DNA from: Candidatus Woesearchaeota archaeon
GTDB lineage: Archaea; Nanobdellota; Nanobdellia; Pacearchaeales; GW2011-AR1
Reading direction: 5' to 3'
DNA length: 37,942 nt
Assembly (NCBI GenBank): GCA_964358615.1
Contig: CAYHOV010000004.1
Coordinates: 1 to 37,942, forward strand
Shown: one piece after another, positions 2,448 through 37,942 of the stretch
How positions within the stretch are numbered: the first letter of the stretch is position 1
Layout: the number at the start of each line of letters is the position of its first letter
Program-made: the position numbers and the translations under genes
The notes under the pieces: generated by a model
What the model saw: only the letters and a program-made list of their open reading frames with translations
What the model was told of the DNA's origin: nothing
Databases searched by the model: none

Positions 2448-2849
2448 ATGTTATTGATAAAAACTATCGTAAAAAAGAGTAATATTCACGGCCAAGGACT
2501 TTTTGCAGATGAAAATATAAAAAAAGGCCAAGCTATGTGGAAATTCAATAATATTCTTGATAAAAAGATAGGCAAAAAAGAATTTGCTAAACTTCCTGCA
2601 CTTGTAAAACAGTTTGTAAAATATTATTCCTATCTTAATCGTCAAAATGAATATGTTCTATGCGGAGATGATGCAAGATATATCAATCATTTGGACAAAC
2701 CTAACACCGAGGATAAAATTTCAAAGCAAGATAGAATAAATGGTGATGAAGGAATAACTGTCGCGGTTAAGAATATTAAAAAAGGAGAGGAGATAACGAG
2801 TGCATATTTGTATTTTGATAAAAAAGGTAATCCAAAATATCTTATTTAG
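2448..2849 (+). CDS. Stand-alone SET-domain protein (putative protein-lysine methyltransferase)
   Basis: SET motifs IHGQGLFA..IKKG, ARYINH...PN and AVKNIKKGEEITSAY. No Cys-rich post-SET domain. Confidence 0.9.
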   Translation: MLLIKTIVKKSNIHGQGLFADENIKKGQAMWKFNNILDKKIGKKEFAKLPALVKQFVKYYSYLNRQNEYVLCGDDARYINHLDKPNTEDKISKQDRINGDEGITVAVKNIKKGEEITSAYLYFDKKGNPKYLI

Positions 2850-2882: not shown

Positions 2883-3269
2883 TTAATTTTTATCAAGTTC
2901 TTGATTGACTAAAAAATCAGCGTGAGAAATAAATTTATCTTCTCTAGACGTATTTGAGAATTTTATTTTTCGGTCATTTAGCAGTGGATCTATTTTATTT
3001 TTTAGCTCTTGAAGATGGGGAACTTTTATTTTATATTGGCCATTCAATTGCCTTATTACAACTTTAGAATCAGAGATAATCTCCAACTCATTTTCTTTTA
3101 TCGCTTGAAGGGCCTGAATTATTGCATTATATTCTGCTTCATTGTTGGTAGCTATGCCTAAAAATTTTGAGTGTTCTTTTATAATCTTATTATCACGAAC
3201 TGCGACAAAAGCACAGGCGGCTTTTCCTGGATTTCCGCGGCTTCCACCGTCGGTGTAAACGGTCAGCAT
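2883..3269 (-). CDS. rnhA: Ribonuclease HI (archaeal/RNase HI-like family)
   Basis: Motifs YTDGGSRGNPG, TNNEAEYNA, SDSKVVIRQLNGQYKIK and ADFLVNQELD. True start is probably ATG 3269, 1 nt after the upstream gene's stop. Confidence 0.92.
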   Translation of the reverse strand: MLTVYTDGGSRGNPGKAACAFVAVRDNKIIKEHSKFLGIATNNEAEYNAIIQALQAIKENELEIISDSKVVIRQLNGQYKIKVPHLQELKNKIDPLLNDRKIKFSNTSREDKFISHADFLVNQELDKN

Positions 3270-3270
3270 A

Positions 3271-4080
3271 TTAAAATCTGGATAAATTCCCCTTGGCTTT
3301 TTTAATAAATTTATCGTAGGAGAGTGTACCAAATTCAGAAACAACACGGTGGATAAATTTTTTCTCTACTAGATCAAAAGCAGGATTTAGAACATAAATA
3401 TTTTTTTCACGTTCATCCCAGACTTCTCGGCCCGAACGAAACTCGAGTTTTACATGATTTGAATATTTAAGAGATATTCCGCAGGAGTAGGATGGGATTT
3501 TATAGAGTGATGCAAATTTTGCATAGAGAGAAGTTCCTATTTTGTTCACAGGACCCCTATCTGTGAATGCGTCTGATCCGAATAAAAATAAATCGCATTT
3601 TCTCAGTGAATACTCTGCTGCTGAATCTGGCAGATGAATCACTTTTATTCCTGCTTTTGCTAATTCTTTTGCAGTCTGGCGGCCCTGGAGAAGTGGATCG
3701 GTCTCGGTATTATAAACAACAAAATTCTTTTTTTGCTTTTTTGCTTTTTTTAATATGTTGATTACTGTCGAAGAATGGCAGTGAGTAAAAACATTCACGT
3801 TATTTTTTATTAAACTTGAACCATATTTTACTATTTTATCGTCGGATATTTTAATGTAAGAAATTATTTTTTTGTAAGCGATTCGGGGATTTTTTGACTT
3901 AAGCAAAAAATTTATTGAATTTTGCATCAGGGGTTCTGTTGGTCTTGTGGCAAAGATTTGTTTTGCTGATTCCTCGGAAGGATCGAGAAGAAAGGCTTGC
4001 ATTCCAGCGAGGGCGATAGCTCGGGCTCCTTGTATTTTTATATCTTTTATATTTTGGAGAATTTTTTCGAACCTCTTCAT
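3271..4080 (-). CDS. eIF-2B alpha/beta/delta-family protein, probably ribose-1,5-bisphosphate isomerase
   Basis: Motifs IKIQGARAIA, TRPTEP, THCHSSTV, ETDPLLQG, GSDA and NKIGT. The Cys and Asp at the R15P-isomerase catalytic positions are retained. Start 4080 is supported by a TATA box at 4101-4108 on the minus strand. Confidence 0.8.
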   Translation of the reverse strand: MKRFEKILQNIKDIKIQGARAIALAGMQAFLLDPSEESAKQIFATRPTEPLMQNSINFLLKSKNPRIAYKKIISYIKISDDKIVKYGSSLIKNNVNVFTHCHSSTVINILKKAKKQKKNFVVYNTETDPLLQGRQTAKELAKAGIKVIHLPDSAAEYSLRKCDLFLFGSDAFTDRGPVNKIGTSLYAKFASLYKIPSYSCGISLKYSNHVKLEFRSGREVWDEREKNIYVLNPAFDLVEKKFIHRVVSEFGTLSYDKFIKKAKGNLSRF

Positions 4081-12183: not shown

Positions 12184-13599
12184 ATGAAAGTATTATTTTT
12201 AAGCCCGCCCCAGGAAGATAAAATGTTTCCGTCGTTAGGAATTGCATATGTTGCGGCTATGCTGAACAAGAATGGCCATGAAGCAGCCATAAATGATGGA
12301 GCAGGAGTTTCTCAAGAATATATGCTTAAATCTGCTAAAAAAATAAATCCTCAAATTGTAGGCCTCACTATGAATACTACAAATAGATTTGAAGTTCTTG
12401 ATCTAGCTAAAAAAATTAAAGATCTATTGAAGATTCCAATTATTTTGGGAGGCCCACATCCTTCTTTATTGCCGGATCAGCTATTGAAAAACTATCCTTT
12501 TGTAGATTTCATCGTAAGAAATGAGGGAGAGTATTCTACTCTGGCATTGATTAATGCATTAGAACAAAAAAAAGATATTAAAAATGTTAAAGGAATCTCC
12601 TACAGAGAAAAAAATAAAATAATCCATAATCCTCCTGCAAAAATTATTACTAACTTGGATGTTCTTCCTTTTCCAGAATGGAAATTCTTTGATTTAAAAA
12701 AATATGGAAAACAAATAGAATATCCCCCAGAATATAGGGATTATCCGGTTGGAAGCATAATCAGCTCAAGAGGCTGTCCGTTCAGCTGCACATTTTGTTC
12801 TTCGAGCCAACTTTGGGGACATAAGATCAGGTATAGAAGCGCTAAAAATGTCGTTGAGGAAATAAAGATGCTCTATAATCTGGGAATAAGATTTTTTGTC
12901 TATAACGACGATAACTTTACTGCAGATAAAAAAAGAGCGATTGAAATATGCAAACTCATGATTAAAGAAGGACTGCATGAAAAAATGGGCTGGCAATGCC
13001 GAGCAGAAGTAAATATGATGAATGATGAAATACTTGAATTGATGAAAAAGGCCAACTGTAATATGATTGAGTTCGGAGTAGAAGATTGCAGCCCTGAAGG
13101 ATTAAACTGGTTTAGGAAAGGCCATATGCATGGCCAAGTCAAGAAAGCATTCGAGTTATGCCAAAAACATGGGATAAAAACAAAAAGTTATTTCATTATT
13201 GGAGGAGACCACGAAACAAAAGAAAATATCAAGAGAAAAAAAGAATATATCGAAGAATTAAATCCAGACATAACTACTGCTTCAATATTGCTGGCTTATC
13301 CGGGAACTGAGATCTATGAAATTGGAAAAAAGAAAGGATTGTGGGATGATGAAGTATGGCTTACTAAATGCATTGGCGAAAAATTTCACAGCTGCGCCCC
13401 GATATATACTGGGCCAAATGTGACTTACCAGGATTTATTTGCGGCTTCGGCCGATATAAACTATTGGTGGGGAAAGAGGAAAGGACAGTATACAATCAAA
13501 GATAATATAAAAATTGCGTTAGATATGCTCAGAAAAGGAGACATAAAGAAACTTATCACCATGAGTTTTGCAGTAATAAAACAAAACATAATCAAATAA
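12184..13599 (+). CDS. Cobalamin-binding (class B) radical SAM protein #1
   Basis: N-terminal B12-binding-type domain (PSLGIAYVAA, GGPHPS, EGE), then SRGCPFSCTFC (CxxxCxxC), DDNF, FGVE and YPGT. Confidence 0.92.
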   Translation: MKVLFLSPPQEDKMFPSLGIAYVAAMLNKNGHEAAINDGAGVSQEYMLKSAKKINPQIVGLTMNTTNRFEVLDLAKKIKDLLKIPIILGGPHPSLLPDQLLKNYPFVDFIVRNEGEYSTLALINALEQKKDIKNVKGISYREKNKIIHNPPAKIITNLDVLPFPEWKFFDLKKYGKQIEYPPEYRDYPVGSIISSRGCPFSCTFCSSSQLWGHKIRYRSAKNVVEEIKMLYNLGIRFFVYNDDNFTADKKRAIEICKLMIKEGLHEKMGWQCRAEVNMMNDEILELMKKANCNMIEFGVEDCSPEGLNWFRKGHMHGQVKKAFELCQKHGIKTKSYFIIGGDHETKENIKRKKEYIEELNPDITTASILLAYPGTEIYEIGKKKGLWDDEVWLTKCIGEKFHSCAPIYTGPNVTYQDLFAASADINYWWGKRKGQYTIKDNIKIALDMLRKGDIKKLITMSFAVIKQNIIK

Positions 13600-17567: not shown

Positions 17568-19055
17568 ATGAAACCAAAAATATTATTAATAAATCCTTCT
17601 TTAACGGGATTGTTCAGCGCAGGCATCGGTACTGTAAAAGTTCCTCTGGGGCTTGCATATATTGCAGCATATCTTGAAAAATATGGCTATGAAGTAAAGA
17701 TAATCGATTGCGTGGCCAATTATGAAAATGTAAAACACATAAAAAATGACATATATAGAATCGGACTTTCGGAGGATAGACTCGCCCAATCAATCAAAGA
17801 ATATAATCCTCAAATCGTCGGTATAAGCTGCAGTTTCACGATCTATGAAGAAGACAGTTTTAGGATTGCAAAAATAGTAAAAGAAAATTCTGATGCTCTT
17901 GTCGTCGTCGGGGGGGCTCATTCTTCTGCGAATCCCGAATCGGCATTAAAATGCAAAGATATAGACTTAGCAGTAATCGGCGAAGGAGAATTAACTTTTC
18001 TTGAAATCATAAAAAATTATAAAAATTATAAAAAAATAGATGGCATTGCATTTAGAACAAAGAATGGAGTAAAGAAAAACCATGCACATAAATTTATTAA
18101 GGATCTTGATGAAATACCTTTTCCTGCAAGACATCTTCTGCCGATGGAAAAATATCTAAAACATCCTCAAAATTCTATGGCAAATATGAGGGGTCCTACA
18201 ACAGAGATAATCTCTAGCAGGGGATGTCCTTTCACTTGCATATTCTGCTCAATATGCAGTGTCTGGGGCAGGAAATGGAGAGCAAGAAGCGCTAAAAATG
18301 TCGTTGACGAATTAGAACAACTGCAGAAAAATTATGGAATAAGAGAGTTTAGATTTTTCGACGATAATATCTCCTGGAACAAAAAAAGAATGAGCGAAAT
18401 ATGCGATGAAATAATAAAAAGAAAATTAGATATCAGATGGGATACTCCTAATGGGGTAGCGATTGCGACGCTGGATGAAAATATTTTAAGAAAAATGAAA
18501 CAGGCGGGATATTATAAAATCATTATGGGAATTGAGTCTGGAAGTGAAGAGACATTAAGATTTATGAGGAAACCGGTAGGATTGGAACATGCAAGAAAAA
18601 TAATAAAAATATGCAACAAATTAGGAATATGGACTTGGTCAACTTTTGTTATCGGCTTTCCAAATGAAACCCGAGAAGAGATCCAAAAGACGATAGATTT
18701 CGCTAAAAAATCTGGGTTAAACTTTGTAACATTTTACATTGCTCAACCCTATCCTGGAACAGAAATGTATGAAATCTATAGAAAAGAAGGATTGTTAAAA
18801 AAAGGGATCAAAAAAACAAGTACGGTTACGCACACAGAATATGATACTAATTATTTCAAAGCAGAAGAACTAAGAGAAATACAAAAAAAAGCTTATTCTG
18901 AATTCATAAAATATCGACTCATATCTTATCTGAATCCGATAAAATTGTATAATGAATTTTTAAACAGGATAAGAAGTTTTGAAGATTTTTTTTATGTTAT
19001 CCGAATGGGCCTCAATCTTATAGGAAAAGAATACAGCCCGATTTATAAAAAGTAG
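17568..19055 (+). CDS. Cobalamin-binding (class B) radical SAM protein #2
   Basis: Motifs PLGLAYIAA, GGAH, GEGE, SRGCPFTCIFC, DDN, GIESG and PYPGT. Confidence 0.92.
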   Translation: MKPKILLINPSLTGLFSAGIGTVKVPLGLAYIAAYLEKYGYEVKIIDCVANYENVKHIKNDIYRIGLSEDRLAQSIKEYNPQIVGISCSFTIYEEDSFRIAKIVKENSDALVVVGGAHSSANPESALKCKDIDLAVIGEGELTFLEIIKNYKNYKKIDGIAFRTKNGVKKNHAHKFIKDLDEIPFPARHLLPMEKYLKHPQNSMANMRGPTTEIISSRGCPFTCIFCSICSVWGRKWRARSAKNVVDELEQLQKNYGIREFRFFDDNISWNKKRMSEICDEIIKRKLDIRWDTPNGVAIATLDENILRKMKQAGYYKIIMGIESGSEETLRFMRKPVGLEHARKIIKICNKLGIWTWSTFVIGFPNETREEIQKTIDFAKKSGLNFVTFYIAQPYPGTEMYEIYRKEGLLKKGIKKTSTVTHTEYDTNYFKAEELREIQKKAYSEFIKYRLISYLNPIKLYNEFLNRIRSFEDFFYVIRMGLNLIGKEYSPIYKK

Positions 19056-21107: not shown

Positions 21108-22148
21108 ATGAACCTCAAATACTTGATAAAAGAAGCAAAATATTATAGAAAATTGGACGGAGGCCTCAAAAGAGTATTTTGGAAATTTCTGTTTTACAAA
21201 ACTCCGCTGTCAAGACTGGTCAATACAAAAGCATATAATTATTTTTATAAAAAAAGAATGGAAAAATTCACGAAGGAACATAGGCCAACAATTCTTCAGA
21301 TAGAGAATACAAATATCTGCAATGCTCGGTGCATCATGTGCCCGCATGTAAATATGAAACGAAAGCAGAAGATAATGAAATTTGAGGATTTTAAAAAAAT
21401 TGTCGACGATTCTATGGCAAGTTATCCTAGCATAAGACTGTTAGTAATCACTGGTTTTGGAGAACCTCTGGTTGATCAGGGAATTGTTGAAAAAATAGAT
21501 TATGTAAATAAAAAATATCCTAATCTGCAGATCGATATATACACTAATGGCGGACTATTAAAAAAAGAATTGAGTGATGAATTACTTGAGAAAAAAATAC
21601 ACAAAATAAATTTCAGCATAAATGCGCTTGAAAAAGATTACAAGAAAATAATGGGGCTGAATTATGATAGTGTAAGTAAAAATATAATCTATTTTATGGA
21701 TAAAAGAAAAAGACTAAACCGAGAATATCCTCTTGTAAATATATCTATGATGATATTAAAACAAAATAAAGAAGATATACAAAAATTCATAGAACTCTGG
21801 GAAAAAAGAGCGGATTCTGTAATGACTTATATGCCTCTTGAATGGGCTGGTGGGAAAAAAGTAGATACTGTCGAAGAAGTCAAGATGAAAAAGAAAAGAT
21901 GGCCTTGCATCCCGCTTTGGCAAAGTATCATGGTCGATGTTGCGGGCGATATAATAATGTGCTGCCAAGATTATGAATCTAAAGTCACTTTTGGAAATGC
22001 TCTGAAACAGCCAATAAAAGAAATAATGAACTCGGAGAGATTCAAAAGAATACGGGAGCTTCAATTAAAGGGAATCTATAATATGCCTGTATGCAACACT
22101 TGCGATAATTGGGTCAATTCGAGTTTTAGCTGGTGGGAATATAATTAA
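21108..22148 (+). CDS. Radical SAM protein with SPASM/twitch-type C-terminal domain
   Basis: Motifs CNARCIMC, GFGEPL and TNG, with C-terminal PC..LW...GDIIMCCQD...GN...CNTC. Confidence 0.9.
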   Translation: MNLKYLIKEAKYYRKLDGGLKRVFWKFLFYKTPLSRLVNTKAYNYFYKKRMEKFTKEHRPTILQIENTNICNARCIMCPHVNMKRKQKIMKFEDFKKIVDDSMASYPSIRLLVITGFGEPLVDQGIVEKIDYVNKKYPNLQIDIYTNGGLLKKELSDELLEKKIHKINFSINALEKDYKKIMGLNYDSVSKNIIYFMDKRKRLNREYPLVNISMMILKQNKEDIQKFIELWEKRADSVMTYMPLEWAGGKKVDTVEEVKMKKKRWPCIPLWQSIMVDVAGDIIMCCQDYESKVTFGNALKQPIKEIMNSERFKRIRELQLKGIYNMPVCNTCDNWVNSSFSWWEYN

Positions 22149-22995: not shown

Positions 22996-24327
22996 ATGAA
23001 ACGCGAGAAAGTATTATTAGTAAGGGCGCCGAATATTTTCAAGTCAGCGCAATGGAAAAAACAAGGAGTTTTAAGAACTCCTACAAATTTGGCCCTACTC
23101 GGATCATATATCCGAGAACATGGAGCATATGAACCAGAAATTCTTGATTTTGAATTAGATGATTCTAAGGATTTAGCAGATATTGCTGGAAAGATTGTGT
23201 CTAGAAATGCTAGATATGCGGGATTTTCAACGCTTACTCCACGTTTTCCTACGATAATGAGGATCTGCGGGGAATTAAAAAAAATAGATCCTGCGATTAA
23301 AACGATTTTGGGCGGACCGCATATTTCCGGAAGGCCACAAGATTGTAGATATCCTGGAATTGACTATGGAATTGTCGGAGAGGGTGAACAGGGATTTTTG
23401 GCGTTGTTAAATAATCTTGTAGCAGGAAGAGATGTTTCAAAAACGCCTAATTTAGTATCTCGAACAGCCGACGGAGAAATTGTTGTCAATCCTAAAGCGC
23501 AGTTTATAAAGGATTTGGATTCATTGCCTCTGCCTGCGTGGGATCTGTTGAATATGGGCGAATACAAAGACCCTCCATTTTTTGGCGATGAGCCCCATGC
23601 AGGAATTTTTACGACGAGAGGCTGTCCGCAGAATTGTATCTTTTGCGCATCAGGAGTCACCTGGGAAAGAAGATTGAGATCCAGATCAGTGGACAATGTA
23701 ATGGAAGAAATCCACAAACTCGCAGATAATTTTGGAACTAAAAATCTTTATTTTTATGACGATCATTTTGCGGCAAAACGTTCGAGAGCTTTAGATCTTT
23801 GTGATCGGCTCGCTTCTGAAAGACCCGGTACGAAATATATTGTGCAAATCAGAGCAGACTCTGTAAATGAAGAGCTTGCACAGTCTCTTAATAGATCTGG
23901 ATGTATTTCTGCTGCTCTTGGAATAGAAAGTGGAAATGAAGAAATGTTGAGAGCAATCAATAAGAGAGAAACAAAAGATGAAATGCGAATTGCTGTAAAA
24001 ATGCTGAAATCTGCTGGAGTGCCAATCACGACAAGCTATATAATCGGATTGCCAGGAGACACTCATGAGACTATAAAAGAAACTCTTGATTTTGCCCGCG
24101 AGTTAAATACAGAACAAATGAAATTCATGCTTCTTACTCCTGTTCCTGGAACAGATGTCTATAGAATGGCTGTTGAACGAGGACTGTTAGACCCTGAAAA
24201 TCTTGAGCAAATGGAAAAAACAACTTTCTACGATGCTACGGCTGTAAATTTATCTGCGGTCTCTACTGAAGACCTATTACGCTATCAGGATATTGCATAT
24301 CGTGAGTTAGATAGGAAGGGGGTATAA
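22996..24327 (+). CDS. Cobalamin-binding (class B) radical SAM protein #3
   Basis: Motifs GGPHIS, GEGE, TRGCPQNCIFC, YDD, GIESG and PVPGT. Confidence 0.92.
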   Translation: MKREKVLLVRAPNIFKSAQWKKQGVLRTPTNLALLGSYIREHGAYEPEILDFELDDSKDLADIAGKIVSRNARYAGFSTLTPRFPTIMRICGELKKIDPAIKTILGGPHISGRPQDCRYPGIDYGIVGEGEQGFLALLNNLVAGRDVSKTPNLVSRTADGEIVVNPKAQFIKDLDSLPLPAWDLLNMGEYKDPPFFGDEPHAGIFTTRGCPQNCIFCASGVTWERRLRSRSVDNVMEEIHKLADNFGTKNLYFYDDHFAAKRSRALDLCDRLASERPGTKYIVQIRADSVNEELAQSLNRSGCISAALGIESGNEEMLRAINKRETKDEMRIAVKMLKSAGVPITTSYIIGLPGDTHETIKETLDFARELNTEQMKFMLLTPVPGTDVYRMAVERGLLDPENLEQMEKTTFYDATAVNLSAVSTEDLLRYQDIAYRELDRKGV

Positions 24328-29626: not shown

Positions 29627-30172
29627 ATGAACCGTGGTCTTTTTCTAGACAGGGACGGTGTTATTTGTCAAGAAAGAAATTTATTTTATGGAGGAACGCC
29701 GGTGACTCGAGCAGAAGATCTTGAATTTTTTCCACGCACTGAAGAAGCTTTTCAGCGTATGGCTCGGTTGGATTTTAAATTAGTAATTGTCACGAATCAG
29801 TCGGCAATCGGTCGAGGCGAACTCAGCAGAGAAGAATTTGAACGGATGAATGAAAAAATAAATCAGATGTTAGGAAAATATGGGAGAAGATTTGATGGGA
29901 TCTATGTCTGCCCGCATGTTCCTGAAGAAAACTGCGATTGCAGAAAACCAAAAACAGGAATGTTACTTAGAGCAGAAAGAGAACTTGAAATAAGTCTGCG
30001 AGATTCTATAGTAATCGGCGACAAAACTTCGGATATTAAAATGGGTATCGATGCTGGATGCAGAACCGGATTGGTAAAAACAGGTTATGGTGGGCGGGAT
30101 AAACTTTGCAAAGTAGAACCAGATTTTATTTCAGATGATCTTTATTCTGCTTTGACGGAGATTGGAAAATGA
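29627..30172 (+). CDS. gmhB: D-glycero-D-manno-heptose 1,7-bisphosphate phosphatase (HAD IIIA)
   Basis: Motifs FLDRDGVI, VTNQS, CPH....CDCRKPKTGM and IGDKTSD. Confidence 0.9.
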   Translation: MNRGLFLDRDGVICQERNLFYGGTPVTRAEDLEFFPRTEEAFQRMARLDFKLVIVTNQSAIGRGELSREEFERMNEKINQMLGKYGRRFDGIYVCPHVPEENCDCRKPKTGMLLRAERELEISLRDSIVIGDKTSDIKMGIDAGCRTGLVKTGYGGRDKLCKVEPDFISDDLYSALTEIGK

Positions 30173-32235
30173 AAGCGGTGATACTCGCCGGAGGGCTTGG
30201 GACTCGACTAAGAGCTGTTATCGGAGATGAAACTCCAAAACCTATGGCGCTTATTGCGGGAAAACCTTTTTTAGAACATCAAATACGTTTATTAAAAAAA
30301 CAGGGGCTTGAGGATATAGTATTAGCTGTCCATCATCGGGCAGGTATGATAAAGACTTTTTTTGGAAATGGAAGACGACACGGCGTCAATATTGCATATG
30401 CGGAAGAAGAAATTCCATTGGGAACTGCGGGTGCAATAAAAAATGCGCAGGGAATTATAGGAGATGAAAGATTTATGGTTTTAAATGGAGATACTTATGC
30501 GGGAATAAAATTCGAAGATTTTTTAAGATTCCACGACGCTAGGGGGAGAAAGGCTACGATGGCTGTGACTGAAGCAGGAGACCCGCAACATCAGGAAGTT
30601 GTAGAAATTGAAAATGGATTGGCAGTCAGATTCCATGAAAGAGGAAAATGTCCTGCAGGCATTGTGCCAATGATAAATAGTGGAGCTTATATTTTTGAAT
30701 CAGAAATATTCAAGAGAATTGATCCGGGCAAAAATGTTTCTCTTGAAAGAGAAGTATTTCCGAATCTTGTTGAGCAAAGAGCTCTTGCAGCTTTTCCGTA
30801 TGCAGGATATTTTATGGATATTGGTCGGCCTGAAACCTATGGTCAGTTCAAAAGAGATATTATCGGCGGATGGTTAATGAGAGGAGAAAATAGTATACGG
30901 GAAGCCTTGGGCAGAATGGGAAAAAATGAAGAGGGTCTTGTTTTTGTTGTAGACGAAAAAGAACGGTTAATTGGAGTTGTAACTCGTGCATTTATAGATC
31001 AGGCTTTCATCGACGAAAAAGCTGACCTGGGAGACTGTATTAAAAAAATAATGCAACCACCTTTAGCAGTTGCTCATGAGGGAGATAGTCCTGAAAAAAT
31101 TGCAGAGATCATGCTTCCGAGAACAAATAGGCTTCCGATTTTAAATGCAGATGGCCAAATTGTTGATATGGTCTACAGACAAGAAGTAATAGAAATTGCA
31201 GACGCTCCGGTGTTCAGGGCAATATCTCCGTTGAGAATAAGTTTTTCAGGCGGAGGAACAGATAAGGAAGATTATTTTACACAATTTGGAACAGGAATCG
31301 TGATAAATGCTACTATCGATAAATATTGTCATGCGACTGCAAGAATGAGACATGATAGTCTGATAAGAATAAATCCGGGACAAGAAAATGAAGAAGTTCT
31401 TGATCTAAGAAAAAGAAAATTAGAGTATGGCGGGCAATGGGATTTGGCCAAGGCAGTGATAAATACTATGAAACCGGATTTTGGTTTTGATTTACATGTT
31501 CGAAATGATGTTCCTCCTGGAAGAGGGCTTGGTTCTTCGGGAAGTTTTGCAGTGATGTTAACAGAACTGTTGACACAAATGCGAAGAAAATATTTAACCA
31601 ATGATCAGGTTGCAGAAATTGCAAGAAGAGCAGAAGTTGAAGAATTAAAAATCGGCGGCGGGTGGCAAGACCAGTATGCTGCAAAAGTCGGAGGATTTAA
31701 TCTGATAGAATTCTCAGCAGGGAGAATTATTCCGTCGTCATTGGCATTATCTCCGGAAGTAGTAAGTGAGCTTGAGGAGAGCTTGGTTTTGTGTTACGTC
31801 GGAAAAACGCATAATTCTGGCGAGGTGCACAGAGACCAGGAAAAACATTTTGCTGAAGAAAAAGAAAAAGTAAGAAGAAGTTTAGAACATCTAAAAGATA
31901 TTGCAATAAGAATAAGAGATTCGTTGGTTTCTAAAAATCCTGCAAGAATAAGAGATTTGGGAGATTGCCTACATGAAGCTTGGGCGCTAAAAAGAGAACT
32001 TGGAGGATCTATAACTAATCCGGAAATAGATCGGCTATATGATGTTGGTAGAATGGCGGGAGCAACTGGTGGAAAATTGCTTGGGGCGGGAAACGGAGGA
32101 TATGTTCTTTTTTTTGTTCCTCCTGAAAAAAGATATTCTCTGGTAAAATCTATTTCAGCGTATACTCCTGAAATATTAGATTTCAAATTTGAAAGACAAC
32201 CGGTTGGAACGAGGGTTTGGTCGCCGCGGATATAA
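30169..32235 (+). CDS. Three-domain fusion: sugar-1-phosphate nucleotidyltransferase (HddC-like) + CBS pair + GHMP kinase (HddA-like heptose-7-phosphate kinase)
   Basis: N-terminus: LAGGLGTRL, PKPM, PLGTAGA, LNGD and FMDIG.PE. Middle: VVDEKERLIGVVT...IM...LPILNADGQIVD (CBS). C-terminus: PLRISFSGGGTD, PPGRGLGSSG, GGWQDQY and GGKLLGAGNGG. Confidence 0.9.
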   Translation: MKAVILAGGLGTRLRAVIGDETPKPMALIAGKPFLEHQIRLLKKQGLEDIVLAVHHRAGMIKTFFGNGRRHGVNIAYAEEEIPLGTAGAIKNAQGIIGDERFMVLNGDTYAGIKFEDFLRFHDARGRKATMAVTEAGDPQHQEVVEIENGLAVRFHERGKCPAGIVPMINSGAYIFESEIFKRIDPGKNVSLEREVFPNLVEQRALAAFPYAGYFMDIGRPETYGQFKRDIIGGWLMRGENSIREALGRMGKNEEGLVFVVDEKERLIGVVTRAFIDQAFIDEKADLGDCIKKIMQPPLAVAHEGDSPEKIAEIMLPRTNRLPILNADGQIVDMVYRQEVIEIADAPVFRAISPLRISFSGGGTDKEDYFTQFGTGIVINATIDKYCHATARMRHDSLIRINPGQENEEVLDLRKRKLEYGGQWDLAKAVINTMKPDFGFDLHVRNDVPPGRGLGSSGSFAVMLTELLTQMRRKYLTNDQVAEIARRAEVEELKIGGGWQDQYAAKVGGFNLIEFSAGRIIPSSLALSPEVVSELEESLVLCYVGKTHNSGEVHRDQEKHFAEEKEKVRRSLEHLKDIAIRIRDSLVSKNPARIRDLGDCLHEAWALKRELGGSITNPEIDRLYDVGRMAGATGGKLLGAGNGGYVLFFVPPEKRYSLVKSISAYTPEILDFKFERQPVGTRVWSPRI

Positions 32236-33123: not shown

Positions 33124-33665
33124 GTGGAGATCTTAATTTTTATTTTAAATATAAAAGAAAAATTATAGAGAGAAAGATAAAGGGTAAATGTTTAAATGTA
33201 GGTTGCGGGGGCCATATTATTCCTGGAGCAGTCAATATCGACGAGAATGCAACAAATCTCCCTTATAAAGATAATTCTTTTGATACAGTGATACTCTCGG
33301 ATGTAATAGAACATATAAAAGATTGGGAAAAGGCTCTAGATGAAGCGATACGCGTCTCAAAAAATAAAGTGATAATAACTGTTCCTGCATATATGTGGCT
33401 ATGGTCCAACTATGACAAAATGCTCGGACACTATCGAAGATATGAAGAAAAAGATATAGATAGGTTTTTAAATAAATATCCGGATGTTAAATATACTGTG
33501 AGTTATCTTTTTGGACCAACTCTGCCATTATTGTGGTTCAGGAAGTTTGGCAGCGGAAAAACTCCAAAACTTCCGGGATTCATAGACGATTTACTCTATG
33601 CAGTATCTCATCTAAAAATGCCTTTTGGTTCGACGATGATGATTGAAATTACAAAAAACAAATGA
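33096..33665 (+). CDS. Class I SAM-dependent methyltransferase
   Basis: Motifs LNVGCG, LPYKDNSFD, DVIEH and TVPA...LWS.YD...GHYRRY. Confidence 0.88.
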   Translation: MDEVNKAWLGGDLNFYFKYKRKIIERKIKGKCLNVGCGGHIIPGAVNIDENATNLPYKDNSFDTVILSDVIEHIKDWEKALDEAIRVSKNKVIITVPAYMWLWSNYDKMLGHYRRYEEKDIDRFLNKYPDVKYTVSYLFGPTLPLLWFRKFGSGKTPKLPGFIDDLLYAVSHLKMPFGSTMMIEITKNK

Positions 33666-34498
33666 TAAACTTAAAATTTTTAAGAAAAAGATTAGGGCAA
33701 GTAAGATACGTTAAAAATCCGATGCAAATCTGGAGATTTTTCTTTTCTAAAGTGAAATCTATAGAAATTGCTATAACCTATGCATGTAATTTTAAATGTC
33801 CAGGTTGTTATGCAGAAGATTTGAAAACGACAAAACCAACAATGCTTTCAAAAGAAATGGTATTGGGATTTATAAAAAAATATAAACCTATGCATGTAAA
33901 TATCACGGGGGGAGAACCTCTTTTACACCCACAAATTTATGAAATAATAAGAGAAATTCCAAAAAGTGTCGTTGTCAGTATCGTCACTAATGGTAGCCTT
34001 TTGAATGAAGAAAAAATTAAAAAATTAAAAAAAGCAGGATTAAATACAATACAAATAAGCTTCGGTAAAAATTATCCCTGGGAAAATCTTGAAAAAGCAA
34101 AGATTGCAAAAAAATATGGGTTGAATGTCTGTTTAAGCGTCACAAATACTAAAAAAAATAAAGAATATATTTTAGCGGCGATAAGGGCTGCAGAAAAAAA
34201 TGATTATCATGTCCTATGGAATCTCCCAAGTTCTTTTATAATGAAAAATTTTGATAGCGAGACATATTTCAAATATCGAAATCATCCGCGAGTCCGGGAA
34301 GATAATATGTTCTGGGCTGGAAGAAATGTATGTCCTGCAGGAAGACAAAAAATCTATATCACAGCAAAAGGAGAACTGATGCCCTGTGATAGATGGCATA
34401 AATCCTATCCAGATCTAGAATCAATGAGAAAAGATTTTCAAGGGAAAAAAGTGTGGTGCAGTCGGCTTGGAGATATTCATCTTAAAAACAATCAATAA
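33662..34498 (+). CDS. Radical SAM protein with twitch-type C-terminal motif
   Basis: Motifs CNFKCPGCY, TGGEPLL, TNG and CPAG...YITAKGELMPC. Confidence 0.9.
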   Translation: MINLKFLRKRLGQVRYVKNPMQIWRFFFSKVKSIEIAITYACNFKCPGCYAEDLKTTKPTMLSKEMVLGFIKKYKPMHVNITGGEPLLHPQIYEIIREIPKSVVVSIVTNGSLLNEEKIKKLKKAGLNTIQISFGKNYPWENLEKAKIAKKYGLNVCLSVTNTKKNKEYILAAIRAAEKNDYHVLWNLPSSFIMKNFDSETYFKYRNHPRVREDNMFWAGRNVCPAGRQKIYITAKGELMPCDRWHKSYPDLESMRKDFQGKKVWCSRLGDIHLKNNQ

Positions 34499-34572
34499 TA
34501 AAAAATTGCTCAATAATTCTCTATCTCCTCGTAGCAGACTGGAAGTTTTAAAACCAAAATTAAAATAAACAA

Positions 34573-35424
34573 TTAAAGCCTGGTAGTCTTATTAAAAAAA
34601 ACTCTTCTTATAGCTCCATAATAATAGCCAAAATATTTTACAGTATAGAATATTGGTAAAAAAAGTATAAATGGGAGATATGGGTCTGTTGCAAAATGTT
34701 TTATGGATTTGAGAATTGCATATAAAAAAAAGAAAGGAAGAGATAAAAAAATAAGAATTGGTTTTTTATAAGAAGAGCCAATCCAAACTCCCTGGGCAAA
34801 AGTCTCGCTTGCTGATTCTGGATTATAGTGAGCCATCTCTGTATCCACAACTTTTGCATATACTGGTGCTTTTTTAAAAAGAGATTGGTCGTCGGCATAG
34901 CCATCTTTTGGGTCAAATCCGCCGGATTTTTCATAGAGACTCCTTGCAGTCAGTGAAGCATTTTTTTTACCTCCTTCGATGAGTTTTCTAAAATCTCTTG
35001 AACCCCATGCCCTCGCCCAGATTTTATCAAAATTTGCAACTTTTTCCCTTGCATGAACTGTTCTCAAAGCCTCACCTTTTATTATTGGTTCTGCTAAATC
35101 TTTTATATAATCCTTACCATAGATATGGTCTGACGCCCAAAAAAGTAAAATTTCTCCTTTTGCATGTTTAAAACCTAGATTCCAGGCTGCTCCTGGGCCA
35201 GAATGCTTTTGTTGGAGGAGTTTAACTTTTGGAGCATATTTTCTGACAATTTCTGCGGTTTTATCCTGGCTTTCATCGTCCACTATAAATATCTCAATAG
35301 GCGTATAACTTTGTTTCAAAAGAGAGTCTAAGCAAATCCCAATATGTTTTTCTTCATTATATGCTGGAAGAATCACTGAAACAAGGAGATTACCTTTTAT
35401 TTTTTTAGACGTTAAAACCACCAT
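34573..35424 (-). CDS. GT2 glycosyltransferase
   Basis: Motifs VSVILPAYNEE, VDDES.D.T and GGFD...YADD. The DxD position is degenerate (WASD). Confidence 0.85.
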   Translation of the reverse strand: MVVLTSKKIKGNLLVSVILPAYNEEKHIGICLDSLLKQSYTPIEIFIVDDESQDKTAEIVRKYAPKVKLLQQKHSGPGAAWNLGFKHAKGEILLFWASDHIYGKDYIKDLAEPIIKGEALRTVHAREKVANFDKIWARAWGSRDFRKLIEGGKKNASLTARSLYEKSGGFDPKDGYADDQSLFKKAPVYAKVVDTEMAHYNPESASETFAQGVWIGSSYKKPILIFLSLPFFFLYAILKSIKHFATDPYLPFILFLPIFYTVKYFGYYYGAIRRVFFNKTTRL

Positions 35425-36215
35425 GGGGCAAATAAAAAGAAGATATTTAGATATTTATACGTGGGAATGTTTCCAATTTTTTGATATATCTCTATAAAAT
35501 TTTTAATAAAAAATATTGGAATTATTATTGCCATCAAAATCAAATAGTATTGTGAAACATCAAACAATATCGAGAAAAAAAGCAATGAAAATGGAGCAAA
35601 TGGTCTCAGCATCTCGGCAGTAAATACTTTTATCTTTGAAGTAATTCCTCCTCTAGAAATTCTTTTTCCAGATTCATAAACTTCACCGACTCTTTTCTTG
35701 ATCAAATCGTATCTTTTTTCATTTATGAAACATTCGTAAACTTTTAATTTTGCAAAATTATCCAAGAAAAAGAAAAAACCCGCAATCAAGCCCAGGTAAA
35801 AATAAATAATATTCCCGTCAGTGCGATATAAACCGACTCCAAGAGCTAAAAGCAAAAGACTTCGGTTTATCCACGAAAAAAAGGTATCCAGATAAGAGCC
35901 TCCGATAGTGGTATTTTTTGTCGCTCGAGCAATCTGACCGTCGACGTAATCCAATAAAATAGCAAGATGATAAATCAGGATGCCGGCCAATAAATATCTG
36001 TATCCTCCAAGACTCATCACAAATATTCCAATAAGCCCGATTATTCCCCAAAGAAAAGATATTTGATTTGGAGTAAATGGAAGGAATCTTGCAAAAAAAT
36101 AAGAGACATATGGAGAGATATAACCAAATGGATAGATATTAATTGACCAGTTGCTCCGATCTTCACCACCTTTTACAATTTCTTGAAAAGTTATATTTTT
36201 ACTCATATACATCAT
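35412..36215 (-). CDS. CDP-alcohol phosphotransferase family membrane protein (variant motif)
   Basis: Motifs TPNQIS and DYVDGQIARA-x6-GGSYLDTFFS. The last Asp of the DxxDGxxAR..GxxxDxxxD signature is replaced by Ser. Confidence 0.88.
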   Translation of the reverse strand: MMYMSKNITFQEIVKGGEDRSNWSINIYPFGYISPYVSYFFARFLPFTPNQISFLWGIIGLIGIFVMSLGGYRYLLAGILIYHLAILLDYVDGQIARATKNTTIGGSYLDTFFSWINRSLLLLALGVGLYRTDGNIIYFYLGLIAGFFFFLDNFAKLKVYECFINEKRYDLIKKRVGEVYESGKRISRGGITSKIKVFTAEMLRPFAPFSLLFFSILFDVSQYYLILMAIIIPIFFIKNFIEIYQKIGNIPTYKYLNIFFLFAPWWF

Positions 36216-37690
36216 CTCATGTATTTTTCTTTATAAATCTTGCTTAGCTCTCCGAACCTTTTTTCACCAGCTTCGTCAAATCTCTCGGCAGTTTGAATCT
36301 GTGGCCACATTTCCCTCGGCAATCGCACATAGAGCGGAAATGTTCTTTGTAATCCCCTTATCTCGCTAGAAGATAGTTGGGGCATAGTAAGTGTCGCATC
36401 AGAACGATAATCTCCGGCTGTTCTTTCTCTCGCGACATATCCGTTTTCGACGCACATTCCCCAAAGTTTTGTTCCACGATAGGGAGAAAAGATATTGATG
36501 ATAGGATTGTCTGGTTCTAAAACTCGATTTAACTCGACAGTATCAAAGAACAAATCTCGGGTTTCTGTAGGGAATCCGACAATATTATTCGCACAAATTC
36601 TTATTCCTGATTTTTTTGCAGTCCTAAATGCTTCGACTAATCTTTCATTTGAAACTTTTCTTCCCAAAACACTTCTTCGAAATTGATCGTTTCCATGCTC
36701 AATGCCTATACTCAAACCTTCACAGCCGACTTCTCTTAGCTTCAATATTTTTTCAAGATCTACTGTCTCTGGTCTTGTCTCTATCCAAAAAGGAAGCCTT
36801 ACATCGCTATATCCTTCAACAAACTCACTAAATCTTTCCTGGCTCATATGAAGAAAATTTTCTGCTACAAGATAAAGATATTGCATCCCAAACTTTTGTT
36901 TTTTATCTTTTAATTCTGCCATAAATTTTGCAATGCTCCTTTCTCGAGGGTATCTTCCGATTCCTTTATACATATCCTGAAGTTCTGCATTGCAACAAAA
37001 AGTGCATCGATAGGTGCATCCCCGGGTCAATTCTATTGGTCCACTTACCCAAATCTTTCCGCCCATGGGTTTGAAAAATCTTTCTCTGTCATAAATATCC
37101 CAATCTTGGTCAGGAAGATCGTCTAATTTTACGAGAGGCCTTAGAGGATTTGCTGTCAGTGTTTGGCCTTTTCTTACTACTAAATTCTGAACGTCTGAAA
37201 AATCTTTTCCAGAATCTAATCTTGATGCGAGCTCGACAATCGCTTCTTCTCCTTCTCCTCTGCAAACCATATCTGTCGGACATTCTCTCATTATCTCTTC
37301 TGCAGCCATTGTTGCATGTATTCCTCCAACAATTTTTGGAGTTTTAATGTCTCGGATAGACTCTAGCATCTCTCGAGCAATGGAGTAAGTAGGTTCTACG
37401 ACCGATAGGGCGATAAGATCTGGATTGAACCGGTTTATTTGTTCTCTAAAATCTCCTGTAAGTGAACCTGGTTTTTCTCTTATGCCTAAATCTGCGAGAT
37501 TTGTAGATCTTATCTGCAAGGATTTTACTCTAGCGTCGTCGCCTGTCTCTTCTCTTGTCCTGTAAAAAGTTGTATCAAATAATTCTACTTTATGACCTTC
37601 TCTTTTCAAACAAGCAGAAAGCAAAGATACTCCTATCGGTATAAGATTATCCATAAAACTGTTAACATAACTAAGTAATACTCGAGTCAT
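36212..37690 (-). CDS. Cobalamin-binding (class B) radical SAM protein #4
   Basis: Motifs PIGVSLLSA, GGIHAT, RGEGE, TRGCTYRCTFC, GIEHG and PYRGT. Confidence 0.92.
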   Translation of the reverse strand: MTRVLLSYVNSFMDNLIPIGVSLLSACLKREGHKVELFDTTFYRTREETGDDARVKSLQIRSTNLADLGIREKPGSLTGDFREQINRFNPDLIALSVVEPTYSIAREMLESIRDIKTPKIVGGIHATMAAEEIMRECPTDMVCRGEGEEAIVELASRLDSGKDFSDVQNLVVRKGQTLTANPLRPLVKLDDLPDQDWDIYDRERFFKPMGGKIWVSGPIELTRGCTYRCTFCCNAELQDMYKGIGRYPRERSIAKFMAELKDKKQKFGMQYLYLVAENFLHMSQERFSEFVEGYSDVRLPFWIETRPETVDLEKILKLREVGCEGLSIGIEHGNDQFRRSVLGRKVSNERLVEAFRTAKKSGIRICANNIVGFPTETRDLFFDTVELNRVLEPDNPIINIFSPYRGTKLWGMCVENGYVARERTAGDYRSDATLTMPQLSSSEIRGLQRTFPLYVRLPREMWPQIQTAERFDEAGEKRFGELSKIYKEKYMR

Positions 37691-37717
37691 TTAATTTTTT
37701 AGAAAGATGCTTTTTAA

Positions 37718-37942
37718 TTATTTCGATACTCTAAGATTCATCTCGGTTAGAGTCTCTTTCATCGCATTAAGGAATTTAGTTATATCCCCTCTATTAATAT
37801 CTCCGATTGTGCCTAATCTGAATGTATTCTCTTTTATTTTTCCAGGATAGATCGTAAAACCTTTTTTATATAAAATATCGTGAAGTCTATCAAAAGAATA
37901 ATTCTTATCTTTAGGCTCAAAAAAAGTGACCAACAAAAAACT
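37718..37942 (-). CDS. C-terminus of a 2-aminoethylphosphonate aminotransferase (PhnW/AepZ-like class V PLP enzyme); 5' end outside window
   Basis: TFFEP.D..YSFD.LHD.L..KGFTIYPGK....FRLGTIGDI...DI..FL matches the PhnW-type C-terminal signature (GFxIYPGK...FRIGxIG). Only about 74 codons are visible. Confidence 0.78.
   Translation of the reverse strand, partial: SFLLVTFFEPKDKNYSFDRLHDILYKKGFTIYPGKIKENTFRLGTIGDINRGDITKFLNAMKETLTEMNLRVSK

Follow-up and report, generated by a model that had tools for sequence, protein, structure and literature searches.

The 37,942-nucleotide stretch analyzed here (the window, which is the entire contig CAYHOV010000004.1, or C4, of the Candidatus Woesearchaeota archaeon assembly GCA_964358615.1) ends in four genes that form, as read from the sequence, the distal half of a phosphonate module of ~9.3 kb. 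The remaining half lies on a 5,956-base contig, C45, found by searching the organism's own contigs. On the basis of its gene content, the module is predicted to form 2-aminoethylphosphonate (AEP), to activate it as cytidine monophosphate (CMP)-AEP, to methylate the activated compound by means of B12-binding radical S-adenosylmethionine (SAM) enzymes, and to transfer it to a membrane-bound acceptor, most likely a lipid-linked sugar or glycan, for the cell surface. Taken as a whole, this is the reading that we favor, and we hold it to be somewhat probable.

The host is a Nanoarchaeota-like DPANN archaeon from groundwater with a small genome. Its assembly (63 contigs, 851 kb, ~35% GC) is a metagenome-assembled genome (MAG) that is 70% complete with 1.8% contamination, a figure that bounds every gene absence reported below. 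The stretch is present in four DNA sequencing runs, all from one groundwater study, and no RNA runs are listed for it. The genes of the module, in the window and on C45, are the following.

37718 to 37942, minus strand: C-terminal 74 residues of an AEP transaminase of the AepZ type, open at the contig end (TIGR03301 positions 291-354 of 355, E 1.4e-17)
36212 to 37690, minus strand: B12-binding radical SAM protein rSAM_B, 492 aa (Pfam Radical_SAM 84.9 bits, B12-binding 65.8 bits)
35412 to 36215, minus strand: CDP-alcohol-phosphotransferase-like integral membrane protein, 267 aa (PF01066 CDP-OH_P_transf 33.2 bits, cut-off 22)
34573 to 35424, minus strand: family 2 glycosyltransferase (GT2), 283 aa, last gene of the run (PF00535 Glycos_transf_2 110.3 bits)
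C45, 1 to 1623, plus strand: PepM fused to an NTP_transf_3 domain, frame open at the contig start (TIGR02320 312.5 bits)
C45, 1624 to 3105, minus strand: second B12 radical SAM protein, rSAM_A, 493 aa (B12-binding and radical SAM domains)
C45, 3161 to 3889, minus strand: stand-alone nucleotidyltransferase, 242 aa, PntC-like
C45, 3894 to 5042, minus strand: Ppd (TIGR03297 451 bits, cut-off 312.5)
C45, 5086 to 5955, plus strand: first 290 residues of the AEP transaminase, running off the 3' end (TIGR03301 positions 1-288, 359.9 bits)

The window genes are separated by a 27-bp gap (37691-37717), a 4-bp overlap, and a 13-bp overlap. The initial annotation had described this tight minus-strand packing, and the list of open reading frames (ORFs) reproduces it; the order that it gave (transaminase, B12 radical SAM, CDP-alcohol phosphotransferase, GT2) agrees with Pfam and NCBIfam, and the PhnW/AepZ-like C-terminus that it set at the head of the run is recovered by the TIGR03301 match. 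It had also proposed that pepM, ppd, and a cytidylyltransferase be sought beyond position 37942. Because the window spans the whole of C4, no further sequence exists on the same contig, yet pepM, ppd, and a gene for a PntC-like nucleotidyltransferase are present on C45, whose end joins the window end in frame. The suggestion of the same annotation that the archaeon may decorate its N-glycan or lipid with a methylated aminoalkyl-phosphonate is supported by these finds, its methylation and its acceptor being the more conjectural parts. The second B12 radical SAM gene on C45 was unknown to that annotation.

The 3' end of C45 and the reverse complement of C4 have the bases AGTT in common, in a single reading frame. 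The N-terminal transaminase piece aligns through residue 289 of a full-length homologue from a related archaeal locus (L009; reference loci are numbered with an L), its last six residues being unaligned and projecting to ~295, and the C-terminal piece begins at residue 296 of this homologue, the shared Ser being the homologue's Ser. Since the two pieces cover profile positions 1-288 and 291-354 and no part of the homologue between them stays uncovered, the contigs abut with no residue lost and encode a transaminase of ~363 aa. C45 and C4 are, by this alignment, adjacent parts of one module. Two Logan contigs over 36900-37942 extend 393 and 548 bases beyond the window end, as lengths given without the bases themselves. 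A scan of 34300-37942 for sigma-70 promoters and for terminators returned 10 and 2 sites, with 10.8 and 2.5 expected, under a model that is not suited to archaea.

PepM, Ppd, and the transaminase would convert phosphoenolpyruvate (PEP) to phosphonopyruvate, phosphonoacetaldehyde, and finally AEP. The PepM protein harbors EDKIFPKRNS at residue 96, matching the EDKxxxxxNS motif described as diagnostic of PEP mutase (Rice 2019, PMC6697681). Its 312.5 bits on TIGR02320 compare with a cut-off of 319.55 for a protein that is N-terminally cut by the contig end, and its NTP_transf_3 domain occupies residues 287-407. Ppd, which neighbors PepM on C45, scores above its cut-off. On TIGR03301 (cut-off 360.8), the N- and C-terminal transaminase pieces score 359.9 and 64.1 bits, respectively, and adding them gives a plain sum of two scores and not a whole-protein score; the catabolic-type model TIGR02326 is lower (280 + 56 bits, cut-off 401). 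The enzyme is therefore of the PhnW-AepZ type and not the generic serine-pyruvate aminotransferase for which the initial annotation had left room. Neither PhnX (TIGR01422) nor PhnJ (PF06007), the kind of catabolic partner that would have spoken against that annotation, has a match across the 70%-complete genome, and the cluster is therefore, by its gene content, biosynthetic.

Activation is attributed to the PntC-like nucleotidyltransferase. The best PDB match of the stand-alone enzyme, over its full length, is 6PD1/6PD2 (E 2.4e-21), while LicC is matched only at 1e-8. The 6PD1/6PD2 structures are of Tde1415 PntC, which forms CMP-AEP from cytidine triphosphate (CTP) and AEP (Rice 2019, PMC6697681). 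The C45 enzyme thus corresponds end to end to PntC (Tde1415/Ari1348), although it is a separate protein, whereas Tde1415 is fused to a transaminase. A LicC-like nucleotidyltransferase occurs both fused to PepM and beside PepM on C45. We infer that CMP-AEP would be formed here and that CTP would be the nucleotide used.

Relatives of the membrane transferase are encoded at 15 loci in reference genomes, four of which are close (L007-L010, from Woesearchaeota and Nanoarchaeota; transferase 52-57% identical). PepM, Ppd, an enzyme of the rSAM_A type, one of the rSAM_B type, and the transferase are kept in all four. L007 and L009 are of the AEP type, with rSAM_A 61-66% and rSAM_B 63-64% identical to the proteins studied here. 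In L008 and L010 there is no transaminase but instead an iron-containing alcohol dehydrogenase (best NCBIfam match Phn_Fe-ADH, 171 bits), together with a CTP_transf_like-PepM fusion of Fom1 architecture, an extra small cytidylyltransferase, and more distant rSAM_A-like (39-42%) and rSAM_B-like (37-38%) genes. The GT2 has homologues in the L008 and L010 clusters (70% and 65% identity) and in L009 (38%). Flippases, PMT_2 enzymes, and a polysaccharide deacetylase flank the related clusters.

A hydroxyethylphosphonate (HEP) version of the cluster, consisting of a Fom1-like fusion, Ppd, Fe-alcohol dehydrogenase, and one or two B12 radical SAM enzymes, is found in some Nanoarchaeota and Woesearchaeota (L008 1198-10744, L010 1929-10780, L069/L112, and L114). 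These clusters resemble the first four steps of fosfomycin synthesis, without the epoxidase, and a transferase of the type discussed below, or a relative of it, is also present in L008, L010, and L114.

The 267-aa membrane protein bears the motif D89xxD92G93xxA96R97x8G106xxxD110xxxS114 as well as P49-N50-x-x-S53. It is probably a CMP-phosphonate:acceptor phosphonotransferase, which would shift the phosphonyl head group from CMP to a hydroxyl or other nucleophile of a membrane-bound acceptor. In an alignment of its small family (27 proteins at E <= 0.001 among 2,714 candidates from a word-indexed search), all members with a source name come from MAGs of Nanoarchaeota/Nanoarchaeia; D89, D92, G93, R97, G106, and D110 are invariant, and A96 is found in 26 of the 27. 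The cytosine-binding P(D/N)xx(T/S) motif is retained, its P49 and N50 being invariant. The family-wide signature D1xxD2G1xxAR...G2xxxD3xxxD4 comprises eight residues reported as absolutely conserved, with D4 as the putative catalytic base (Clarke 2015); seven of these are present in the window protein, and the D4 position is S114. An exhaustive profile search returns 8,490 representatives at E <= 0.001, of which 2,285 reach E <= 1e-10. The motif is shown by 115 of the best 150 representatives, and the D4 position of these 115 is His in 80, Ser in 7, and Asp in no more than 7. As D4 is mostly His among the motif-bearing relatives, the window transferase is assigned by its sequence to a large His/Ser-type branch of the CDP-alcohol phosphotransferases.

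The AlphaFold model of the transferase (pLDDT 85.3, pTM 0.82) shows the six-TM fold of the family, with AF2299 as the best Foldseek match (E 1.3e-5, TM 0.55), followed by IPCT-DIPPS and phosphatidylinositol phosphate (PIP) synthases. A profile search of PDB sequences ranks these relatives in the same way, with D4 aligned to a Ser/His column. The window protein shares its fold, seven of eight signature residues, and the P(D/N)xx(T/S) motif with AF2299 and IPCT-DIPPS (PDB 4O6M, 4MND), from which it differs in having Ser at D4 and no cytoplasmic N-terminal domain. The transferase is the sole PF01066 match found in the genome, in which CDP-archaeol synthase (CarS) has no match; in a genome of this completeness, the two observations argue against CDP-archaeol as donor and for a CMP-linked head group. 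The transferase would be active, despite its altered D4, with CMP-AEP or CMP-methyl-AEP as the donor. In a sample of 301 genomes of the class, 24 encode a transferase relative at E <= 1e-10 and 13 encode PepM (at least 300 bits). Ten of the 13 PepM genomes have a transferase relative, which in nine of the 12 others lies on the same contig as PepM, at a distance of 0.2-4.5 kb.

More remote relatives of the transferase occur in L012-L015 and L018-L020, from gut Methanomassiliicoccales, Methanomethylophilaceae, and Eggerthellaceae; these have His at D4 and a motif ending in ...QDxxNH. In L012, L015, and L020 the relative has a nucleotidyltransferase and a class-V aminotransferase nearby, and PepM gives no hit in these loci.

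The acceptor would most likely be a lipid-linked sugar or glycan made with the GT2 and bound for the cell surface. The GT2 has a hydrophobic C-terminal tail and is membrane-anchored. It may be a dolichol-phosphate-sugar synthase, although it matches the DPMS structure weakly (E 6.8e-7), as it does many other GT2 structures. The phosphonate cluster is situated at the edge of an AglB glycan island, listed here with the B12 radical SAM genes that it contains.

5180 to 34498, both strands taken together: glycan-biosynthesis island abutting the cluster (Pfam scan of 32 ORFs)
12184 to 13599, plus strand: B12 radical SAM gene (Pfam scan)
17568 to 19055, plus strand: B12 radical SAM gene (Pfam scan)
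22996 to 24327, plus strand: B12 radical SAM gene (Pfam scan)

The island includes AglB/STT3, GT4, a flippase, several GT2/GT1 enzymes, a PMT_2 GT-C enzyme, SAM methyltransferases, epimerases, and a nucleotidyltransferase-kinase fusion. The remaining window sequence is likewise of archaeal type and encodes SecY, aIF-2B, and an STT3/AglB homologue.

An alternative that shares the same path to the activated phosphonate has a membrane lipid alcohol, e.g., host-derived archaeol, as the acceptor and a phosphonolipid as the product. In eukaryotes, CMP-AEP and diacylglycerol give a phosphonolipid in this way. The window transferase belongs to a family that makes phospholipid head groups, and with neither CarS nor another PF01066 gene found, head-group exchange on scavenged lipids would fit a DPANN cell. 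The gene set, moreover, parallels that of the bacterial 'Burkholderiales_CDP-OH' clusters, predicted makers of phosphonolipids. However, for AF2299 and IPCT-DIPPS, its nearest relatives of known structure, a small hydrophilic pocket is described in place of a lipid groove (Clarke 2015), and the glycan-island setting, the GT2, and the flippases and PMT_2 enzymes of the related loci all point away from a lipid. Nor was an HpnL-like gene (LPG_synthase_TM homologue) detected in the genome by tblastn with eight bacterial queries. A lipid acceptor is considered unlikely, and a lipid-linked sugar or glycan the more probable one.

Between activation and transfer, one or both radical SAM enzymes would methylate the activated phosphonate, most likely at carbon, following the logic of Fom3 and CMP-hydroxyethylphosphonate. 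Both have an N-terminal B12-binding domain and a CxxxCxxC radical SAM core, which in rSAM_B reads CTYRCTFC at residue 225. Fom3 methylates CMP-HEP according to reviews, one of which groups it with HpnJ; the NCBIfam HpnJ score fails to separate rSAM_A or rSAM_B from their paralogues, and their likeness to Fom3 is one of gene context. On the PhpK model TIGR04479 (cut-off 600), rSAM_A scores 139.4 bits and rSAM_B 71.6; on the Sden_1168 model NF038361 (cut-off 575), the values are 368.3 and 58.2, the former being the best match of rSAM_A and extending over nearly its full length. An ESM Atlas look-up of rSAM_B returned only generic 'B12-binding radical SAM' clusters, none named Fom3-like. The clusters ranked 1 and 3 in its feature search have Uroviricota as the commonest known phylum, and a further row of the structure search is 70% viral, hinting at phage-borne B12 radical SAM genes.

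The case for a phosphonate substrate is made by the genomic company of the two families. A search for rSAM_B relatives gave 759 at E <= 0.001 among 8,000 scored, and PepM, Ppd, or transaminase is within 10 kb in 17 of 79 reference loci; orthologues at 50-68% identity are located in PepM clusters. A FastTree phylogeny of 75 rows was built from 70 locus ORFs of at least 400 aa, the window protein, the L007, L008, and L010 proteins, and rSAM_A as the outgroup; nine of the 79 loci are omitted for an ORF below 400 aa, and L031, L033, L043, L072, and L100, apparently mis-extracted ORFs on a joint branch of 3.9, are disregarded. The window protein falls in a 10-row clade (SH-like support 95) in which eight rows have PepM within 10 kb, the other two being on contigs of 3.6 and 10.2 kb. 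Five of these eight are accompanied by a transaminase (window, L007, L022, L023, L024) and three by a dehydrogenase (L069, L073, L077). The next branches (L062, L081, L070, L063) are likewise PepM-linked and are followed by a 44-row bacterial clade of anammox Planctomycetota, Alphaproteobacteria, and Gammaproteobacteria. For an orthologue that accompanies the amino pathway in some loci and the hydroxy pathway in others, the simplest substrate is the compound common to both, a nucleotide-activated two-carbon phosphonate, and rSAM_B is, from this distribution, a probable methyltransferase of such a compound.

For rSAM_A, all seven loci at 47% identity or above contain phosphonate-pathway genes. 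Six have PepM and/or transaminase, and the seventh, a 6.7-kb contig, has only a nucleotidyltransferase and a transferase relative; overall, such genes are found in 17 of 74 rSAM_A loci. In three proteins of 728-743 aa from metagenome contigs (P0179, P0199, and P0226), an rSAM_A homologue (50-55% identical) is fused to an N-terminal nucleotidyltransferase domain. In the two fusions compared, this domain is 29-34% identical to the stand-alone enzyme of C45 (E 2e-38 and 5e-46). In the manner of a Rosetta stone, the fusions connect the radical SAM step with activation at the level of sequence, and the joining of an rSAM_A-type enzyme to a PntC-like activating enzyme affords a concrete substrate hypothesis, CMP-AEP or CMP-HEP. 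We infer that the radical SAM enzymes would be methylases of a CMP-phosphonate, the site being C2 as in Fom3, C1, N, or P.

Eight Streptomyces/Kitasatospora loci (L135, L137, L138, L151, L155, L157, L159, and L166) encode an enzyme 34-37% identical to rSAM_A. Seven are ordered PepM-Ppd-transaminase-rSAM, one of them without a transaminase hit, and in L159 the transaminase is upstream of PepM. A transaminase is thus found in seven of the eight and a nucleotidyltransferase hit in none; the PepM of L157 is a weak partial hit at the locus edge. We know of no product assigned to this actinomycete arrangement.

A second alternative has plain AEP transferred, while the radical SAM enzymes act on the sugar or glycan, either C-methylating it or changing it by some other radical reaction. 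The 851-kb genome encodes seven B12 radical SAM proteins, of which the window accounts for four, C45 for one, and contig C7 for two, and rSAM_B is 21-28% identical to the other six. Five of the seven genes are away from the phosphonate genes, and their products presumably modify a sugar or glycan; rSAM_A is 35% identical to the product of window gene 17568; and no PepM, Ppd, or transaminase hit is found at 62 of 79 rSAM_B loci or at 57 of 74 rSAM_A loci. On the other side, PepM clusters are where nearly all of the closest orthologues of both families are found, in archaeal as well as bacterial phyla and whether a transaminase or a dehydrogenase is present, rSAM_A homologues are fused to a PntC-like nucleotidyltransferase, and Fom3 provides a precedent for a B12 radical SAM enzyme that acts on a CMP-phosphonate. 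A modification of the sugar alone is, on this balance, rather improbable. Whatever their substrates, seven such genes are a striking investment for a reduced genome, and cobalamin import is presumably needed.

That the cluster yields a diffusible natural product, such as a fosfomycin-like antibiotic, in place of a surface decoration is suggested by the Fom1/Fom2/FomC-like set with a B12 radical SAM enzyme in L008, L010, and L069. No epoxidase- or CMP-hydrolase-like gene is present among the annotated ORFs of L007-L010, however, and the conserved membrane transferase and GT2, together with the glycan-island setting, make this very improbable. A role of the transaminase in AEP catabolism (as PhnW) among unrelated neighbors, which could be entertained while only the gene tail was in view, PhnW and AepZ being homologous, is rejected as having almost no likelihood, given PepM and Ppd on the abutting contig, the lower TIGR02326 scores, and the absence of PhnX and PhnJ matches from the 70%-complete genome.

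Several observations weigh against the favored pathway of CMP-AEP formation, methylation, and transfer. The pathway is deduced from sequence, and its source is a MAG of limited completeness. In the transferase family, the D4 position is never Asp (Ser in 18, His in 6, Thr in 2, and Ile in 1 of 27), and in PIP synthase the corresponding change D93N nearly abolishes activity (Clarke 2015). One might speculate that the role of the missing base is taken by His at D4, as in most relatives, or here by the invariant D152 and R118; it is equally a matter of speculation that the acceptor nucleophile needs no deprotonation. Since 14 of the 24 class genomes with a transferase relative have no PepM, the transferase subfamily is not confined to phosphonate pathways. 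A PDB sequence search shows the GT2 to be a generic one.

The radical SAM assignments are open to similar objections. Both proteins are below every curated NCBIfam cut-off, the best match of rSAM_B being BchE (122 bits, cut-off 481) and that of rSAM_A the Sden_1168 model (368 bits, cut-off 575). The physiological substrate of SD_1168 is given as unknown, with C- or P-methylation proposed (PMC9204698), and B12 radical SAM enzymes are not all methylases, as review literature points out. The five further B12 radical SAM genes are located in glycan islands and have no phosphonate link, and the protein of gene 17568, to which rSAM_A is akin, itself scores 285 bits on the Sden_1168 model; these paralogues make a sugar substrate possible. 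In the bacterial clade of the rSAM_B tree, 39 of 44 rows show neither PepM nor Ppd nor transaminase inside a distance of 10 kb (the other five show at least one), and the gene is usually beside a TIM-barrel gene and, in planctomycete rows, also an HpnL-like LPG_synthase_TM gene. The TIM-barrel gene is found in 43 and the HpnL-like gene in 25 of 72 compared rSAM_B loci; homologues of these partners were found neither in this genome nor in the PepM-linked loci.

The bacterial relatives of rSAM_B (L026-L067 and others, from Scalindua, Brocadiales, Gammaproteobacteria, and Alphaproteobacteria) are 44-49% identical, usually with the TIM-barrel gene (AP_endonuc_2) upstream and, in planctomycete rows, the HpnL-like gene downstream. 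Some Brocadiales loci also encode, 5-9 kb from the rSAM_B relative, Ppd, AEP transaminase, a nucleotidyltransferase, and a CDP-OH transferase of 430-454 aa.

The module is comparable to several known systems. The Group 1 phosphonolipid ppm neighborhoods termed 'Burkholderiales_CDP-OH' comprise AEPT, two PntCs (one fused to Ppm), and a CDP-alcohol transferase (Yu et al. 2013 cited in Li and Horsman 2022, PMC8942020; Nostoc clusters, PMC5987646), and the products of the bacterial Group 1 clusters are there described as uncharacterized (Li and Horsman 2022, PMC8942020). The archaeal cluster shares with them the PepM-nucleotidyltransferase fusion, a second PntC-like enzyme, Ppd, AEP transaminase, and a protein of the CDP-alcohol phosphotransferase family. 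It differs in its DPANN host, in a transferase that lacks the fourth signature Asp, and in having two B12 radical SAM enzymes and a GT2 in place of an Fe(II)/2-oxoglutarate oxygenase and an HpnL-like gene, neither of which is among the ten genes of C45 and window positions 34573-37942.

With the start of the Streptomyces fosfomycin pathway (Fom1, Fom2, FomC, Fom3), the module has in common the (here predicted) cytidylylation of a phosphonate by a PepM-fused domain, followed by a B12 radical SAM enzyme, and the sister clusters L008, L010, and L069 additionally share the CTP_transf_like-PepM fusion and the Fe-alcohol dehydrogenase. In contrast to the fosfomycin pathway, the window cluster has a transaminase (for AEP and not HEP), an NTP_transf_3 fusion, and two radical SAM enzymes; a membrane transferase and a GT2, and not an epoxidase, come at its end, and the late fosfomycin genes are lacking. 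A third reference point is SD_1168 of Shewanella denitrificans, whose NCBIfam model rSAM_A matches best, albeit under the model cut-off, and rSAM_B at only 58 bits. In its predicted working, the cluster resembles the Group 1 'CDP-OH' clusters and the early fosfomycin pathway but is a member of neither, and it does not make up a category of its own.

Phosphonate surface decorations are described as widespread, and what follows CMP activation as largely unknown even in bacteria (Rice 2019, PMC6697681; Li and Horsman 2022, PMC8942020). According to one paper, most archaea are unable to metabolize phosphonates, and only 12 archaeal neighborhoods were examined by Li and Horsman 2022 (PMC8942020). 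In our full-text literature search, which left subscription-only papers and supplements aside, no paper was found that connects DPANN archaea with phosphonate synthesis or an AEP cluster with a B12 radical SAM enzyme; supplements may list archaeal ppm neighborhoods in more detail. The present cluster places a complete PepM pathway in genome-reduced DPANN archaea and reveals two uncharacterized B12 radical SAM families that travel with PepM in archaea and bacteria, the rSAM_A family possibly bearing on the orphan enzyme SD_1168. It also draws attention to the fact that many CDP-alcohol phosphotransferases, forming a large branch, lack the fourth Asp termed 'absolutely conserved', which bears on the catalysis of transfer. 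The cluster is of interest for both phosphonate and radical SAM enzymology. One may further speculate that a surface group resistant to proteases, phosphatases, and phospholipases could affect host contact in an episymbiont.

A broader proposal, which we offer tentatively and with more doubt than conviction, is that an undescribed 2-aminoethyl- or 2-hydroxyethylphosphonate, C-methylated and possibly twice so, is produced both by DPANN archaea (Nanoarchaeota, Woesearchaeota, Undinarchaeota) and by a number of anaerobic bacterial phyla. It would be built on the CMP-activated form by two new families of B12 radical SAM methyltransferases and attached to S-layer glycans or scavenged lipids by a distinct His/Ser-type branch of the CDP-alcohol phosphotransferases that does without the Asp base.

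Other features of the window are of lesser bearing. The island also contains a SPASM radical SAM gene and a small radical SAM gene (21108-22148 and 33662-34498, respectively, both plus strand), and a homologue of the latter (72% identity, 51 aa) terminates locus L008. At 30169-32235 (plus strand), 2.3 kb from the cluster, a 688-aa protein combines NTP_transferase, CBS, and GHMP kinase domains and is probably a sugar-1-phosphate kinase and nucleotidyltransferase in one; a 687-aa protein with the same domains (12269-14332 of L009) lies beside the L009 cluster. At the left end of the window, by the translation and secretion genes, a 133-aa SET-domain protein (2448-2849, plus strand) and a 154-aa RNase H (2883-3347, minus strand) are encoded.

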